Assembly (NCBI GenBank): GCA_965218585.1
Contig: CBDCLE010000012.1
Span: forward strand, 1-64,000
Reading direction: 5' to 3'
DNA from: Terriglobia bacterium
GTDB taxonomy: Bacteria > Acidobacteriota > Terriglobia > 20CM-2-55-15
Length of the DNA stretch: 64,000 bases
Each line of letters starts with the position of its first letter. Position 1 is the first letter of the stretch. Shown piece after piece: positions 959 through 12,161 of this stretch. The translations under genes and the position numbers were made by a program. The notes under the pieces are model-generated. The model saw nothing but the letters and a program-made list of their open reading frames with translations, searched no databases and was not told the DNA's origin.

Positions 959-1573
959 TCTAGCTACCTCTATCGGAAAGCAGGTTATTCGAAGAAACCC
1001 TCGGGCACGGGTTGAAAGTCGGTCGGATTGTGACCACCGTCCTCTGCTGTCTGGATTCTGGCCTTCTGCCTCCTCCAAGTCAACATCACTGCCCAACGGC
1101 GAGGGTTCCGCCGTGCTCTTGCCACCCCTTGCACTGCGAACCCCGTTTGTTTTACTTATCGGCCAATGTTTTGTCATGACCGCTGGGTCTTCACTGGTTA
1201 CGATCTTGGGTGCTATCGACAACGATTAGTCGTGAGTAACGCCGTTTCGTTTACCGATCGATTCTCAACGCCCCAGAAGTCGGCTTCTGGCAACCAGTCC
1301 TAGTTTTTAGAACGAGTGAGCAATGATTGAGACGATCGGATGCTGAGAGACTGGAATCGATCCGGCTGGACGACGACTATGAGACGATACCCGCGAACAG
1401 GAGAGTGGAATGTCTGAGAAGACCCCGTCATCGGTAGACACCCCATGGAGGGGGTTGGGCTGCCTCGTGGTCGTTCTTGCTCTGTTGGCAGGTCCTCCCC
1501 TGCTGAAATCCGTCGACGTCATTTACAGTGCGGGCCACATGATTGAACCGCCCCGGGAATCCCGGAGACCGTT

Positions 1574-2814
<1,241 letters not shown>

Positions 2815-6034: not shown

Positions 6035-7225
6035 CTACTGTGTTATAAACGAAGCGGTCCACAGAACGGACAACGAGGAAGCTGCTGAATCAGGAAGCGG
6101 GCGATGCGAATGCGAAGCGTGGCAATCGAGCAGGGGTTATGTCGTTCGGGCCGGATCCGGGGTTCCGCGGGGTTTGAAGTGTTTGGGGAGTTTGGGGACG
6201 GATAGTCCAACATGCTCGACAAATGCAGAGGGGGAAAATCGGCTCCGCTCGGCGACCAGGAACCCATAAGAGGCAATACATAAGGTGCCATGATGGTGAA
6301 ATCCACGCCAGCCGCGACCTTCGTAGTGTCCCAGACCGAGTTCCTGCTTGAGTTCCTGATAGTCGCGTTCGATGATCCAGCGCTGTTTGGCCTGACCGGC
6401 CAGATCGGAAAGCGAGGTATGGGCCCCAAGAGTGGAGAGCCAATACCGGATCGGTTCGGATGCGGTCTTGGGCCACTCGACCAACAACCACTCTTTCGGA
6501 TGCGGCGAGTGGCGCTCGTGATCCAGATGAGCGGGACGAATGCGAACTGCGGCGAAACGGGAACGCAGGGTCTCGGAGGTGCCTTCGCGCCAGGAGACGT
6601 TCTTCCAACGCTGGGGAGACAACGAGAGGGCCAGTTGCTTGACCGAAACCGGTTGATGTTTCTTGTTGCGCTGCATGCGGGTCGGTGTCCGTCCGCGGCC
6701 GGTCAAGGATTTCGGCGGCAAGGGACCCTGGCCCGGTTTCCACACGGTCGTGGTGCCTTGCACCCCTAGGACGTAGCTAAGTCCGAGTTCGGTGATGCCG
6801 TGCCGGAACTTGTAGTTGTTGCCGTAGGCCGTATCGCCCAGAACCGGTGCCGGAGCAATGCCGTCATCGACGGCCTGCCGGATTTGTTCCAAAGCAATTT
6901 GAGGTTTAGTTTGAAATCGAACGTCTTCGGGAATAGCGGCTTTGCTTCGACGTTCCGGATCCTTCGCCCAGGTCTCGGGGAGGTAGAGTCGCCATGCCAC
7001 CGGCAAGCTGGATTTCGCTGTCGCCACCGACAGGCTCACCGCCACCCGGCAGTTCTCAGGTTTGCCGACCTGTCCACAGTATTGCCGGGCCACACCCACC
7101 GAGTGGGTCCCCTTTTTCACGAATCCGGTGTCGTCGACAATCCAGGCTTCAATCGGACCGTTGGCTTCCATCGCCCCCAGCGCGTACTGTCGAACTTCTG
7201 CCAACAGAGCCGCATCGTCCCAGGG
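6035..7225 (-). mobile_element. IS701-family element remnant, 5'-truncated
   Basis: IVDDTGFVKKGTHSVGVARQYCGQ, RWIIERDYQELKQELGLGHYEGR. Transposase-like sequence stops at PWDD (7225) with an in-frame TGA just upstream; probable terminus CTACTGTGTTATAA at 6035. Confidence 0.9.
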
Positions 7226-7226
7226 T

Positions 7227-9012
7227 CATCATGCTCAATAGTGTTTCTGTCATCGACGCGACGCTGACTTCTACAGCAACGGCTGCCCCGACTTCGGTGG
7301 CGGTCGGAGCCAGAGTATTGTTCACTGTAGAGGTCACACCGGGCACCGATCCCACGAGTACGGCAATCAACGTAACCGCCAATCTGTCCCCAATCGGAGG
7401 CTCCGCCTCACAAGCGCTGTTCGACGACGGCACGAATGGAGACGCCACGTCTGGAGACAACGTCTTCTCCTTTCTGGCAGACGTTCCAGCCAGCGTCGCC
7501 TCGGGCGCTCATTCGATCACGGTCAGCGTGAGCGATTCCATCTCCCGCACGGGAACGACCTCTGTTGCTCTCACGGTGTCGGCAGGCCAGACCTTCGCCA
7601 TCACCGACAGGGGTGGGGTTTCGCTCTCTTCTGAAGGGAGCTCAGCGACTACGGTTTCAGGCTATGGCCAGGTGGAACCCGACGACGGGATGACGACGCC
7701 CACAGGACTGGCCATATTCGGTTTCCGGCAGAACGGGATTCTCGTCTCGGAAGCCGGCGTACCGGCTTCCCCAACCCTTCAGGAAGGACGGATCTTTGCG
7801 GAGATCGACGGCCCGGTCAGGACCGGCCTCGCGATCGCCAATCCAAACGAGGCCACAGTCACGATCTGGTTCGCCTTCACAGACGCCGATGGCGCCGACT
7901 TCGGAAATGGCAATTTCACGCTGGGACCGGAGGAATAAATGGCAAGGTTCCTGGACGAGGCTCCGTTCAACGGTGTCGCACCCATGTTGGGATCGTTCAC
8001 CTTCACTTCCAACCTTCCGATCTCCGTTATCGCGCTCCGCGGCTTCACCAATGAAAGATCCGAGTTCCTCATGACAACACTGCCTGTGTCACCGCTCACT
8101 GCGGGCGCTTCAGACACGGTCTACTTCCCTCACTTCGCGGACGGAGCCGGCTGGACTACGCAGGTCATCCTCGTAAACCCGACTAACGCGGCGCTCACCG
8201 GAAGCGTTCAGTTCTTTGGCACGGGAAGCGAAACGGCCGCGGCCGAGCCGGTGGCGCTCACACTGACCGACACTCAAACCGGATCGGAATTTACCTACTC
8301 GATTGCTCCGTGCAGTTCGATCCGGCTCCAGACCTCAAATCCTGAGGGATCCACCCAGGTGGGATCGGTCAGGGTAGTCGCGGACGGGGGGAGTTCCCCG
8401 CCTTCGGGTGTGGGTATCTTTTCTTTCGAGAACGGCGGAGTGACGGTGTCCGAGGCCGGCGTGCCCGCATCGACCGCGGGCGCGGCGTTCAGGGTTTACG
8501 TCGAGGCCAGTGGTACATCGGGACAGCCCGGGTCGATTCGGAGCGGGATGGCACTGACCAACACTTCTGGAGCGGCGACGGTAGTCCTTCTTGAACTGAC
8601 TACGCTGGACGGAGTAGCCACAGGACTGACTGAACCCATCACGATCCCGGCATCCGGTCAGGTCGCCCGATTCATCGACGAAATATTCTCATCGCTCACG
8701 ACACCGTTTTCAGGGATTCTCAGGATAACTTCGACGGCGACAGACATGGCCATCGTGGGCCTTCGTCTCACAACCAACGAGCGGAACGACTTTCTGATAA
8801 CGACGACCCCGCCTTCAGACGAATCCTCGGCGACGACCTCGTCGGATCTCTTCTTCCCTCACTTTGTGGATTCAGGCGGCTGGACCACTCAATTCATTCT
8901 GTTCAGCGGTTCGTCTGGACAGACATCAAGCGGATCTCTCGGTTTCACAGGCCAGGATGGCCAGACGCTGGACCTTTCGGTTTCTTCGACATCGACGCAA
9001 AGTGTCCCCTGA
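7227..9012 (+). pseudogene. C-terminal fragment of a large secreted/surface repeat protein, 5'-truncated, with internal TAA at 7936-7938
   Basis: LFDDGTNGDATSGDNVFS motif; two internal repeats (VSEAGVPAS...FPHFxDxxGWTTQ); EE*MARFLDE aligns with GQVARFIDE in the second repeat. Confidence 0.8.
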
Positions 9013-9033
9013 AAAACAGTTCTTGCTTCCAAC

Positions 9034-9060
9034 AAAAAAGCGGCGGTTCGCACCGCCGCT
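9034..9060 (-). terminator. Intrinsic terminator downstream of the rhodanese gene
   Basis: AGCGGCGGT-TCGC-ACCGCCGCT hairpin preceded on + by A6 (U-tract on -). Confidence 0.8.
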
Positions 9061-9087
9061 CAGAAAGGCATCTCAAGATCTCTTGTT

Positions 9088-9522
9088 CTACTGAACAGGC
9101 CTTATCGGCCCTTCGGCTGGACGATCGACACTTTCGACAACTTCGAGTCCTTCAGCTTTCCAATCGTTGATGCCGCAGAACTGACCGGCGTTGTATCCAG
9201 CATCTGTAAACATCTGTGCAGCGCGCGACGCGCGCCCGCCTCCCTGTCAGTAGAAAACGAGTTCGATATCTTTCGGGATGTCGGCCATCCGAGCTTCGAG
9301 CTCGCCCACCGGGATGTGAATAGCGCCTTTGATCGCGCCATTGGCTTCGAGTTCCCAGTCCTCACGGACATCGATCAGCAGGAAAGTATCTCCACTTTCC
9401 AACTTGTCCTTGAGGGTGGGAATCGCGATGCGCTCGACGTCCGTACTCTCCTGAGCTTGGGCATAGCCGGTCACACCAGACATCAAGATGACCATGAAGA
9501 GTCCGATCCATAGTTTCGACAT
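9088..9522 (-). CDS. Secreted rhodanese-domain protein with probable selenocysteine at codon 92 (TGA 9247-9249), 144 aa
   Basis: GAGGAGG RBS, signal peptide MSKLWIG...AQA, LIDVREDWE, GAIHIP, then VFY-UGA-QGGGRASRAA...GINDW; frame open to TAG at 9088. Confidence 0.85.
9218..9249 (-). promoter_or_regulatory. Candidate bacterial SECIS hairpin
   Basis: UGA-CAGGGAGGCG-GGCGCGC-GUC-GCGCGCU: GC stem with G-led apical loop starting ~17 nt after UGA. Confidence 0.7.
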
Positions 9523-9622
9523 TCGTGGAGCCTCCTCTAGTAGGGTTGTTAAGTCCAGGTACTTGCACATTATAATACCGCCATACAGGCACGCATTCAC
9601 GGCAAACCGATTGGAAAACACT

Positions 9623-10510
9623 ATGAAACGACACTACGTAGGAACCGTTGACGAAACAAGATTCCAGACGCCCGAACATTACAAATCCCACTCATCCGGA
9701 TATACCCGGCTGGAACTCATCGATCATGAAGCCGACCCCTCATCCGTACACACGGGATTAGGTCTCGCCCAGATCGAACCCGGAGGGCACCTCGATCCTG
9801 TGGTCCACGCGTTTGAAAAGGGCTTCTACGTCCTCGAGGGATCCCTGATCACAGAAATCGATGGCCGAAGCGCCGAACTCCCGACGAATCATTACGGGCT
9901 CATTCCTCTGGGCACAACCTACTCGATGTACAACGCGGGATCCGAACCTGTGCGTTTGCTGGAAATGATGGCGCCTCAACCCAAACCCTCCGATGACATT
10001 TTTCAGGACACTTACTTTCACAAGGAAGGTGCGGTCACCAAGACGGGCGACGTTCCCGACCTTGGGGATCCGCGGACCTCAAAATATCTTGGCAAGTTCG
10101 AAGACTCCCAACTACCGGACTCTGGTGCGATATCGGCGGTCGGCGCCAGGAGCGGATCCATCGCCGGGGTCGCCATCAAGGAATTCATCGACCGGATGCT
10201 GGGCGCCGAACACATGGCGATGTTCATGGTGCAGTTCCGTCCTGGTGGGATGGGAACCCAACACGACCATGCGTTCGAGGAGTCCTACTTCTTCCTTTCC
10301 GGCGAAGCCGAAGCGGTCCTGAATGGACAGACCTATCGGGTTAAAGCGGGAGATTTCGTCTGGACGGGTGTGGGCTGCATGCACAGCTTTGAAAACATCG
10401 GCGAGAAGCCCGTCCGCTGGATCGAGACACAGGCGCCCCTGCCGACGGCGACGGAGGCCTTCCGCTTCCGCCGGGAATGGGAACCGGTAGCCAAGAAGAT
10501 CGAAGGATAG
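9623..10510 (+). CDS. Bicupin protein
   Basis: Two cupin motifs: HLDPVVHAFEKGFYVLEG and QHDHAFEESYFFLSG...GCMHSFEN. Confidence 0.9.
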   Translation: MKRHYVGTVDETRFQTPEHYKSHSSGYTRLELIDHEADPSSVHTGLGLAQIEPGGHLDPVVHAFEKGFYVLEGSLITEIDGRSAELPTNHYGLIPLGTTYSMYNAGSEPVRLLEMMAPQPKPSDDIFQDTYFHKEGAVTKTGDVPDLGDPRTSKYLGKFEDSQLPDSGAISAVGARSGSIAGVAIKEFIDRMLGAEHMAMFMVQFRPGGMGTQHDHAFEESYFFLSGEAEAVLNGQTYRVKAGDFVWTGVGCMHSFENIGEKPVRWIETQAPLPTATEAFRFRREWEPVAKKIEG

Positions 10511-10534
10511 TAACCCACACGGCCTCACCTGCTG

Positions 10535-10972
10535 TCAGGCTTTATTGACCATCCAGGCCGAAAAGCTTTCGAGGAAATCCCGGAAGCCGTCGAGGTGCTC
10601 GGGCGGAAAATCGTATTCTCCCGCCGCCCGTCCGAGCGTCTTGCCGAAACACCCCAGCCAGATCTGCCGAGCCTGCTCGTCAATCTCGAACGGAAGATGC
10701 CTCGCTCTCATCCGGGGTGGGCCGTACTTTTCAAAATAGAGAGGCGGTCCCCCCAGAAGCGTTACGAAGAAGCTCGCTGATTTCTTCGAAGCCTCTTCCA
10801 TGTCCACGGGAAAGAGATGGCGGATCTCGGACTTGTCCAGTTCCCGATAAAAGTCCGACATCATCCTGAAAATATTAGCCTCACCCATGAGCCCATATAT
10901 TTCCTTGCTGGGACCGGGACCCTGGGGTGGACCGCCGAGAGGCGTATAGATGATTCGTTCTGTTTCAGCCAT
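10535..10972 (-). CDS. Truncated (2/2) hemoglobin, group II-like
   Basis: DFY...LFP...LGGPPLY...PRMRARHLPFEI...WLGCF. Confidence 0.9.
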   Translation of the reverse strand: MAETERIIYTPLGGPPQGPGPSKEIYGLMGEANIFRMMSDFYRELDKSEIRHLFPVDMEEASKKSASFFVTLLGGPPLYFEKYGPPRMRARHLPFEIDEQARQIWLGCFGKTLGRAAGEYDFPPEHLDGFRDFLESFSAWMVNKA

Positions 10973-10980
10973 ATATCCTG

Positions 10981-11009
10981 AAACCAAAACGGGCCCCGAA
11001 AGGGGCCCG
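10981..11009 (-). terminator. Hairpin, probable terminator after the MBL gene
   Basis: CGGGCCCC-GAAA-GGGGCCCG followed on - by TTTTGGTTT. Confidence 0.65.
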
Positions 11010-11046
11010 CTCGTTACCCAGCTGATGGCCAATGGCCGCAGGCTCT

Positions 11047-12081
11047 CTAATTCGCCGTCAAGTCTCTATACGCACCGGCCACGTTAAGCGGACGTTGGGC
11101 ACCGAAGAACTCCCAGTGGTCGTAGTCCTCCATCGTGACACTTGCCTGCGCTTCCTCAAGACTCTGGCCCGCCTCGATCGCAGCAGCTGTTCTTTCGCGC
11201 ACTGCCTCACGGTACTCCCGGTTAGCCGTAAAATCTGCATGCCGGCCCAACTTCCCGTGGCTGCAAATGAAATGTTCGAAGTCCATAGCTTCGACCTGCC
11301 TGACCAGTTCGAGTTCACTGGCAGTCGACACGGCGGGACCGAAAGGCGTCCGGTCGATCGTGACCCAGTCCGAAGCGAACAAAACGTTTGTCCCGTCAAC
11401 AAACCGAACGATCGTATTGTCGTCGGCATGGGCGACCGGGAAGGGGATGACCTCGACAAGCTTCCCGCCCAGCCGAATGTTAAGGGGTTCGGTGTAAGTC
11501 AATTCCGGCGGCACGACGTTTGCGAAGGGCCCTCGGGTCACTTCCGCGCCGCTCAAAACGCCGTTTCCATCTTCGTCATAGAGATCGAACTGCCGACTGA
11601 GGTTCCCCATCGCTTCGTTATATTCGAGACGGCCGTTGCCGTTCGCATCCTGTTCTCGGAACCTTTCTGGAATCGGGGTGTTCGCCGGGGGCATTTCCAG
11701 ATGGCCAAGCATGGCCTCGTGGCCAATCAACCGTGCAGTATCCGCCCACACGGCCGCACCGGAACCATGATCGTAGTGGTGGTGGCTGTAAATGACGTAC
11801 CTTACCGGCACATCAAACATTTCAGCCAGTTCGCCCTTGAGCCAGTTGGCCATTTCCAGACCGACCGGTTCGACAAGGATGATCCCTTCGGAAGTGACCA
11901 TGAAGACCGATACGTAGTCGTCCTGCCGTGCGTAATAAACGTCACCAGTCAGATTCCCAATCTCTCGCCCCTGGTATTGGGTCTGCTGGACAAGCCGACG
12001 GTCCTGAGCGTCGGCGACCGGCGTGAACAGTGTCAGGGCGAAACACCCGACAAGTAGAACTATCAAGCACTTACTTTTCAT
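11047..12081 (-). CDS. Secreted metallo-beta-lactamase-fold hydrolase with inserted EF-hand pair
   Basis: Signal peptide; SHHHYDHG; DANGNGRLEYNE and DEDGNGVLSGAE. Confidence 0.9.
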   Translation of the reverse strand: MKSKCLIVLLVGCFALTLFTPVADAQDRRLVQQTQYQGREIGNLTGDVYYARQDDYVSVFMVTSEGIILVEPVGLEMANWLKGELAEMFDVPVRYVIYSHHHYDHGSGAAVWADTARLIGHEAMLGHLEMPPANTPIPERFREQDANGNGRLEYNEAMGNLSRQFDLYDEDGNGVLSGAEVTRGPFANVVPPELTYTEPLNIRLGGKLVEVIPFPVAHADDNTIVRFVDGTNVLFASDWVTIDRTPFGPAVSTASELELVRQVEAMDFEHFICSHGKLGRHADFTANREYREAVRERTAAAIEAGQSLEEAQASVTMEDYDHWEFFGAQRPLNVAGAYRDLTAN

Positions 12082-12161
12082 AGGGTCTCCTATTTCGTGT
12101 TGTCCGGGTTCTCTCGGCAAGCCGATATACTACCTCAACAGAGCACGCGCGGCACATTCCC

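Follow-up and report, generated by a model that had tools for sequence, protein, structure and literature searches.

A predicted exported rhodanese with selenocysteine in place of the catalytic cysteine in a Terriglobia bacterium

Whether an in-frame TGA in a short rhodanese-like gene of a Terriglobia bacterium terminates the protein or encodes selenocysteine (Sec, U) is the question raised by the locus analysed here. The gene lies on the minus strand at 9522..9088 of a 64,000-nucleotide stretch (positions 1 to 64,000 of contig CBDCLE010000012.1, assembly GCA_965218585.1), which is called the window below. It comprises 144 codons with a single in-frame TGA at 9249..9247. Taking the evidence as a whole, the best explanation is a secreted single-domain rhodanese in which the catalytic Cys is replaced by Sec, with a rough probability of 0.88. 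The narrower claim, that the gene encodes a genuine Sec-decoded, full-length rhodanese, is held very firmly, and the specific chemistry of the protein is much less settled.

Standard translation (table 11) ends at the TGA, directly after ...DIELVFY. When the TGA was read as U, a protein of 144 residues was obtained, with U92 embedded in VFYUQGGGRASRAA and followed by 52 residues that end in ...GINDWKAEGLEVVESVDRPAEGPIRPVQ before a TAG at 9090..9088. The start codon, ATG at 9522..9520, agrees with that of P0002, a database entry of 97% identity whose first residues are MSKLWIGLF. A preliminary description of this DNA, made from the letters alone, had stated that the open reading frame (ORF) stops at VFY, that the UGA stands where rhodaneses carry the active-site Cys, that the frame stays open for 52 residues to the TAG and that a terminator follows. 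Its description of the locus is correct in all details: reading with TGA as U confirmed the frame, the alignment to solved rhodaneses agreed on the catalytic position, and a stem followed by a T run was found at 9061..9038 on the minus strand. The features of the locus are as follows.

9088..9522, minus strand: complete coding sequence of the predicted selenoprotein, 144 codons, UGA as the Sec codon 92, TAG stop at 9090..9088
9531..9536, minus strand: Shine-Dalgarno-like AGGAGG, 8 nt 5' of the ATG, as read from the sequence
9454..9522, minus strand: signal-peptide-like N-terminus, residues 1-23, with K3, a hydrophobic core LWIGLFMVILMSGV and A-Q-A preceding Q24
9157..9414, minus strand: rhodanese domain, residues 37-122, from Pfam PF00581, the AlphaFold model and Foldseek
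9247..9249, minus strand: UGA codon for the predicted Sec U92, which occupies the catalytic position and closes strand 87-92
9218..9239 in the extended form, with the core at 9236..9220, minus strand: candidate Sec insertion sequence (SECIS) hairpin, 7-bp stem, loop G-U-C, 17 nt from UGA to loop
9175..9177, minus strand: codon of Cys116 (FCG), the invariant second Cys, last residue of strand 111-116
9091..9156, minus strand: residues 123-144, the C-terminal tail, which contains the conserved (D/E)RPAEGPIxP motif
9038..9061, minus strand: intrinsic-terminator-like stem-loop, then TTTTTGTT, 27 nt after the TAG

The protein read through the TGA is a rhodanese by domain, by fold and by active site. 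Pfam Rhodanese (PF00581) matched residues 37-122 with an E value of 6.7e-15 (55.8 bits against a cut-off of 22.2). An AlphaFold model built with 35 family sequences had a mean predicted local distance difference test score (pLDDT) of 88, with values above 92 over the domain and of 57-64 over residues 1-30. Foldseek returned 71 matches in the PDB at E <= 0.001, and almost all of the matches listed were rhodanese-domain proteins; the nearest solved structure, 5ve3_A, superposed with a root-mean-square deviation of 1.5 A over 103 columns. In alignments with rhodanese domains of known structure, U92 matched the catalytic Cys (fyCggGfR in 6mxv, ifCqvGlR in 3nta/4ocg), so that the loop U-Q-G-G-G-R corresponds to C-G-G-G-F-R in 6mxv and C-Q-V-G-L-R in 3nta. 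As in active rhodaneses, the nucleophile position ends a strand (87-92) and opens a six-residue loop that closes in Arg, and G95 and R97 were invariant in the 35 sequences.

A trivial account of such a codon is a sequencing or assembly error for TGC or TGT. The source genome is a draft of 26 contigs with an apparent frameshift in selA (described below), which leaves some room for errors. In contigs from four public runs of three studies over 8900-9700, however, no other letter was listed at 9247-9249, and contigs with zero differences spanned 9211-9359 in runs of two studies. The preliminary description would have been contradicted by reads carrying TGC or TGT; the public contigs show TGA instead. 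Moreover, the 97%-identical database protein, encoded on a separate contig, terminates at the same Tyr, and the TGA is common to 56 distinct relatives. An error is thus given next to no credence. The summed contig depth of three runs (X1, X3, X4) peaked in the bin 9224-9250, which holds the UGA and the SECIS stem, but contig depth is an unsound measure; many partly matching contigs from other organisms fell in the same bin, which fits near-invariant nucleotides there among the relatives.

If the TGA is a genuine codon, it could still be a true stop, leaving a 91-residue product, with what follows either never translated or decaying as a pseudogene. In this genome TGA serves as an ordinary stop: it ends 14 of the 37 long non-overlapping ORFs in the window, including that of the convergent neighbour (9010-9012), and so is not a general sense codon here. 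Annotation also sides with a stop, since table 11 ends the ORF there and 106 of the best 120 database homologues end just before position 92, 102 with VFY as the last residues; the remainder have Cys (13) or Trp (one). The lone Trp homologue is consistent with a gene caller that read TGA as Trp. The relatives read at the DNA level tell otherwise. A search of 401 sampled genomes of the phylum gave matches in 144, and the first 35 matches, own gene included (E <= 1.7e-15), had one in-frame TGA each. In all 30 loci read from phylum genomes the TGA stood at the catalytic position. One locus among the relatives, L028, belongs to a genome flagged as unpublished, and none of the conclusions rests on it. 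A scan of genome contigs with a single-protein query gave 5 loci, and a scan of metagenomes that started from a Cys form gave 38; metagenome and genome loci together comprised 46 distinct sequences, of which 42 have TGA and four (L056, L083, L086 and L092) have TGC. The UGA therefore aligns with Cys in homologues, the pairing by which bacterial selenoproteins are recognised. One open frame of 52 codons plus a GC hairpin would carry little conviction by themselves; that 56 distinct relatives share the same TGA together with a conserved frame is far beyond chance.

The 30 loci fell into two subfamilies. Subfamily A, to which the window gene belongs, has the pattern VFYU..GGRAxRAA...FCGIxDWK...RPAEGPIxP, and its tail motif (D/E)RPAEGPIxP is common to Sec and Cys forms; subfamily B has ILTAUNGGGRAARAAALL...FCGLxDY, and many of its members carry a lipoprotein-like Cys right after the hydrophobic N-terminal segment. 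The ratio of nonsynonymous to synonymous differences (pN/pS, pairwise Nei-Gojobori) was 0.39 downstream of the TGA versus 0.28 upstream for the 12 loci of subfamily A, and 0.35 downstream versus 0.40 upstream for the 18 loci of subfamily B. The nucleotide differences were concentrated at third codon positions, and no stop or frameshift occurred before the shared C-terminus in the 30 genome loci or in the metagenome forms that were read past the TGA. Selection at the protein level acts on the frame after the TGA. In the AlphaFold model, the part after the TGA holds two helices and one strand of the fold, and a 91-residue product would be a non-functional fragment without the catalytic loop. With 52 codons under purifying selection in two subfamilies, a fragment that would lack the loop and two helices, and a terminator that comes after the TAG and not after the TGA, termination at position 92 is very improbable.

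Reading of the UGA as Sec calls for a SECIS element, and the preliminary description had pointed to a GC hairpin with a GUC loop past the UGA. It was found at 9236..9220 as GGCGCGC-GUC-GCGCGCU (-11.2 kcal/mol; the extended 22-nt form reached -12.7 kcal/mol), with a 17-nt core that starts 10 nt after the UGA. With the U of the UGA numbered 1, nucleotides 14-20 pair with 24-30, the loop is G21-U22-C23, and a G11-C32 pair extends the stem. According to the bacterial SECIS model quoted in a 2026 review (PMC13188914), the loop has 3-9 nt, the stem 4-16 bp, the distance from UGA to loop is 16-37 nt and the energy is -7.5 kcal/mol or lower; the loop has a G in its first two positions, commonly as N1-G-[G/U]-N-N2 with N1 and N2 paired. 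The window hairpin agrees with every one of these constraints (loop of 3 nt, stem of 7 bp, C-G-U-C-G, 17 nt, -11.2 kcal/mol).

The conservation of synonymous sites in the stem carries more weight than the hairpin itself. Codon counts were made on the 35 sequences that match the subfamily motif, among which two with the other hairpin described below (L034 and L037) are the exceptions. Counting codons from the UGA, 33 of 35 sequences use GGG for Gly+4, a codon that accounts for 19 of 247 cases in eight further conserved Gly columns; as many (33 of 35) use CGC for Arg+5, and as many use GCG for Ala+6. At codon +7, the third base (position 24, pairing with C20) was always G, whether the codon was for Glu (GAG in 22 of 22), Ser (UCG) or Ala (GCG), and the third bases of codons +8 and +9 were almost only C or U, both of which pair with G, with one GCA at +9. 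Other synonymous sites of the same genes are near saturation (synonymous proportion pS ~0.7). Across 29 distinct sequences, all 232 pair cells held standard pairs; within the window's own subfamily, six of the eight pairs were invariant and two varied between G-C and G-U only.

The contrast with Cys forms points the same way. No hairpin of this kind is present in the closest Cys form, which encodes the same G-G-R-A-S-R-A-A with GGC AGA GCC TCG CGA GCT. When distinct sequences were scanned for hairpins that satisfy the constraints of the published SECIS model, 53 of 56 Sec forms passed (the three that failed have bulged stems) and none of the three Cys forms did. When synonymous codons were resampled, the observed hairpin was reached by 4% of the resamples for the window gene, with a median of 6.75% across the Sec forms. 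The preliminary description had also named an outcome that would have told against it, namely close homologues that all have Cys and lack the hairpin; most of those found have both the TGA and the hairpin, which is missing from the few Cys forms. Three groups with different hairpin codons were seen: GGCGCGC/GCGCGCC in the window's group, GAGCUCC with an 8-nt loop and GGAGCUC in a second one, and GAGCCGCG, loop CGUGC, CGCGGCUU in subfamily B. In subfamily B, two of the eight pairs were changed on both sides, and the covariation score was 0.119 versus 0.034 for shuffled alignments, a value reached by 0 of 500 shuffles. Three metagenome contigs (L089, L090 and L091) carry a Sec variant, VFTUTAGFLSSRAVELF, in which the UGA and the GAGCUCC/GGAGCUC hairpin are retained but the otherwise invariant loop Arg is absent. 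This variant may represent a rhodanese-like selenoprotein whose chemistry is altered.

The genome was then expected to supply the Sec-decoding machinery, as the preliminary description had suggested checking. In the source assembly (26 contigs, 95% complete), selA (484 bits), selB (376 bits) and selD (356 bits) were all found above their curated cut-offs, together with a tRNA-Sec (73 bits; reported by ARAGORN as tRNA-SeC, anticodon tca). The selD locus (C4:113004-113927; L001:1441-2484, minus strand) has an in-frame TGA of its own, which gives U in FAKCAGUAGK, a position that we take to be the usual Sec/Cys site of SelD. Across the phylum, a selA match at E <= 1e-50 was present in 301 of the 401 sampled genomes, 297 of them above the curated cut-off, and Sec decoding seems to be the norm in Acidobacteriota; within the window's own class, the family labelled f3 had selA in just 11 of 33 genomes. 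Among the other genomes with a TGA form, selA was present in 32 of 33, and the exception is a genome that is 69% complete. This co-occurrence is consistent with Sec decoding, but it discriminates weakly against the background of 301 in 401.

These results also bear on a reading in which an ordinary tRNA for Trp, Cys or Arg decodes the UGA, or the codon is suppressed at a low level, giving a full-length protein free of selenium. Selection on the downstream frame would look the same whatever residue was inserted, and one database homologue does have W. Trp or Arg at the catalytic Cys position would nevertheless abolish function, the complete Sec machinery is present and accompanies TGA forms in 32 of 33 genomes, the SECIS-model hairpin is found in 53 of 56 Sec forms and in none of the three Cys forms, and TGA is a normal stop here. 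Decoding without selenium is therefore a slim prospect, and Sec insertion at codon 92 is the reading followed below.

Several observations weigh against Sec decoding of an exported, active enzyme and have to be set beside the above. The hairpin is no more stable than dinucleotide shuffles (z -0.28), and its folding energy is no better than that of synonymous recodings (mean z -0.07; 1 of 30 reached 0.05). Any choice of codons for Gly-Gly-Arg-Ala-x-Arg-Ala-Ala is rich in G and C, so that a GC hairpin is hard to avoid and its stability does not count as evidence here. Of the SECIS proposed in the preliminary description, what stands is supported by the near-invariant synonymous sites and the contrast between Sec and Cys forms; the hairpin's stability by itself gives it no statistical support. 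An Rfam scan of 8900-9700 at E <= 10 returned no SECIS family, only chance-level small RNA matches. There was no compensatory double change in the window's own subfamily, so the hairpin evidence there is conservation and not covariation. The selA gene (C2:238246-239591; L014 ~1480-1640, minus strand) gave two matches in overlapping frames, covering model positions 1-415 and 407-454, the pattern of an apparent single-base frameshift some 40 codons from the gene end, near ...SWGVALS / EDLSASELEKRLR. Either an error of the draft assembly or a true defect of the Sec pathway may lie behind it; in the second case, Sec synthesis could suffer. As for expression, contigs from an RNA library (run X5) covered 9119-9244 from a relative and 9330-9504 with identity; DNA carry-over is possible, and the gap over the UGA is uninformative. 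The neighbouring genes gave no functional clue and were not conserved across 10 orthologous loci. Finally, the actual incorporation of selenium, the export, the substrate and the interplay of U92 with C116 are all inferred.

Export is judged probable from a hydropathy reading of the N-terminus. The segment contains K3, a Kyte-Doolittle maximum of 2.50 over 12 residues and A-Q-A at 21-23; a hydrophobic N-terminal segment was present in 27 of 30 relatives, and the low pLDDT of residues 1-30 is consistent with a flexible, unstructured segment. What the preliminary description called a signal peptide is this signal-peptide-like segment, and the periplasmic location named with it is a prediction from that same segment.

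How would such a protein be made, and what would it do? In the proposed sequence of events, the UGA at codon 92 would be read as Sec, with the downstream hairpin recruiting SelB that carries Sec-tRNA(Sec), and SelA, SelB, SelD and tRNA-Sec would be supplied by the genome. The signal peptide would direct passage through the inner membrane by the general secretory pathway, and cleavage after A-Q-A (residue 23) would leave a mature protein of about 121 residues. The selenolate of U92, which opens the loop U-Q-G-G-G-R, would then most likely take a sulfane sulfur (or selenium) from a donor such as thiosulfate, polysulfide or a persulfide and hand it on, and Cys116 would probably serve as its resolving or protective partner by way of a Se-S bond. 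A six-residue loop is the type of sulfur-transfer rhodaneses, and a longer loop that of phosphatases and arsenate reductases. Because the loop is of the six-residue rhodanese type, transfer of sulfane sulfur (or selenium) by way of a Se-S intermediate is taken as the likeliest chemistry, at about even odds.

The second Cys keeps another chemistry in play. C116, in F-C-G, was invariant in 35 of 35 aligned sequences, at a position where typical rhodaneses have Gly or Ala. In the AlphaFold model, C116 ends strand 111-116 and U92 ends strand 87-92. The strands that end at the catalytic residue and at the position of the second Cys are neighbours in the sheet of the rhodanese fold. A Se-S bond between U92 and C116 is plausible if the two strands are neighbours here too. 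The protein could accordingly be a genuine Sec protein that works as a selenol/thiol oxidoreductase instead of transferring atoms as a rhodanese does. The U92-C116 pair would alternate between a selenol/thiol state and a Se-S bond, reduce a periplasmic substrate (persulfides, polysulfide, selenite or the like) and draw electrons for its recycling from a supply of the DsbD type. The invariance of C116 and the placement of both residues at strand ends speak for it, as does the fact that the nearest structures are rhodanese domains of a persulfide dioxygenase, a CoA-disulfide reductase and a persulfide reductase. A rhodanese/DsbD fusion selenoprotein, TsoB, is catalogued as well, and most selenoproteins are redox proteins according to the parts of the reviews consulted. 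On the other hand, no DsbD-like or thioredoxin-like gene adjoins the gene in the window or in the 10 orthologous loci, the match to the TsoB model was far below its cut-off (26.3 versus 805 bits), and the U-x4-R loop is of the rhodanese type, not the longer phosphatase/arsenate reductase type. An oxidoreductase is rated the less probable of the two chemistries, although a serious one, and sulfur or selenium transfer by a Sec rhodanese is kept as the preferred account.

Rhodanese selenoproteins as such are not new. Predictions of them go back to 2005 and come from genomes as well as from metagenomes of the ocean and of symbionts (sulfurtransferase COG0607 in the ocean surveys PMC2398784 and PMC1088965), and recent reviews list five forms (PMC13188914, PMC9312934). 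The remark in the preliminary description that Sec-rhodaneses are known and usually mis-annotated is in keeping with these five forms and with the 106 of 120 best homologues that end before position 92. The closest counterpart is form 2, the COG0607/PspE type with UxxG. As described in the passages on form 2 in the two reviews, it shares with the window protein a single PF00581 domain, Sec at the position of the catalytic Cys and the motif seen here as U-Q-G-G; in these passages form 2 is, like the window protein, predicted by the logic of Sec/Cys pairs plus a SECIS, and no biochemical characterisation of it is reported there. By domain and motif alone, and not by comparison with a catalogued representative, the window protein fits form 2. 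Those same passages do not mention a signal peptide, a second Cys, the RPAEGPIxP tail, a spread in Acidobacteriota or a predominance of Sec; in PMC13188914 the terms 'periplasm' and 'signal peptide' occur 0 times. Whereas the COG0607 family of the ocean survey, in the portion of the reports consulted (PMC2398784/PMC1088965), comprised 6 Sec versus 4,277 Cys members, TGA forms dominate in the family of the window protein. No exported, Sec-dominated acidobacterial clade with a conserved second Cys was found in the portions of the literature consulted; supplementary lists of the selenoproteome papers may already hold members. No NCBIfam model covers this form-2-like protein.

Other known rhodaneses are more distant. 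PspE of E. coli (NF007627, TIGR02981; structure 2jtq) is likewise a small exported single rhodanese domain with the same catalytic position. The match was weak (E 1.1e-6 for the NCBIfam model and 4.5e-4 for 2jtq), and membership was rejected at 28.8 versus 102 bits for NF007627 and 26.4 versus 126.3 bits for TIGR02981; PspE differs in having a catalytic Cys and in lacking both the second conserved Cys and the C-terminal tail. The window protein may thus function as PspE does without belonging to its family. Sud of Wolinella succinogenes (1qxn) shares the rhodanese fold (Foldseek E 1.5e-4, template modeling score 0.60; sequence E 2.2e-4). It is a periplasmic Cys homodimer that carries sulfane sulfur on one active-site residue and is linked to polysulfide reductase. 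Sud is a plausible functional analogue of the window protein, but it uses Cys, and no gene for a polysulfide reductase partner occurs near the window gene or in the orthologous loci. Closer in sequence are the rhodanese domains of BpPRF (5ve3, a persulfide dioxygenase-rhodanese; 33% identity over the aligned fold, with the catalytic residue aligned) and of 4ocg/3nta (E 3.6e-12), 3nta being an NADH-dependent persulfide reductase; CoADR-RHD is 3icr. All these domains are cytoplasmic, fused to redox enzymes and use Cys, whereas the window protein stands alone, has Sec and is predicted to be exported.

Three further candidates were set aside. NF041203, rhodanese_LYCAU (form 3, CxU), was rejected at 43.8 versus 115 bits; in form 3 the Sec stands two residues after a Cys, whereas in the window protein, with F-Y-U, it stands in place of the Cys. 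NF045694, TsoB (form 5, a rhodanese/DsbD fusion with UxxxxU), was rejected on the score given above. The case for Geobacter ExtH as a Sec-rhodanese is unsupported, as the paper names ExtH rhodanese-like and ExtKL the selenoprotein.

A tree of 66 rows and 70 columns, with many unresolved forks, placed the Cys forms inside Sec clades. It requires at least two changes between Sec and Cys, and four in the most parsimonious reconstruction, with a direction that depends on rooting; when rooted on the all-Sec subfamily B, it weakly suggests reversions from Sec to Cys. A broader reading would be an extracytoplasmic acidobacterial rhodanese clade in which Sec is ancestral and dominant, the Sec92-Cys116 pair is obligatory, the SECIS was rebuilt with other codons at least three times and the Cys forms are reversions. 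We regard it as doubtful. If it were true, the role could be extracytoplasmic capture or reduction of chalcogens, that is, of polysulfide or persulfide sulfur, or of selenium for the selenoproteome.

Hundreds of entries of this family are annotated as fragments of about 91-94 residues without the catalytic loop, and a dedicated model would mend the annotation across Acidobacteriota. The existence of close Sec and Cys forms makes the family a clean natural experiment on the two residues at a rhodanese active site. It also offers an example of SECIS turnover, in which the element dissolves at synonymous sites once Cys replaces Sec. A Sec enzyme that is predicted to be exported and has a candidate Se-S partner bears on the handling of sulfane sulfur or selenium outside the cytoplasm. 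With rhodanese selenoproteins already known, the window protein adds a member and overturns nothing, and will not surprise specialists.

The gene itself is monocistronic and lies between a convergent and a divergent gene. On the divergent side, 9623-12120 holds a two-cupin protein (9623-10510, plus strand), a bacterial-like truncated globin (10535-11032, minus strand) and, beyond the globin gene, a protein with a metallo-beta-lactamase fold (11047-12120, minus strand). On the other side, two adjacent plus-strand ORFs of 314 and 357 residues (6994-7938 and 7939-9012) had no Pfam match, and the second has internal repeats like (Y/L)FPHF(A/V)D(G/S)xGWTTQ(V/F)IL. The start of the first is overlapped on the opposite strand by a DDE_5/DDE_Tnp_1 transposase ORF (6137-7204, minus strand; E 6e-65), a mobile element close to the Sec-rhodanese locus.

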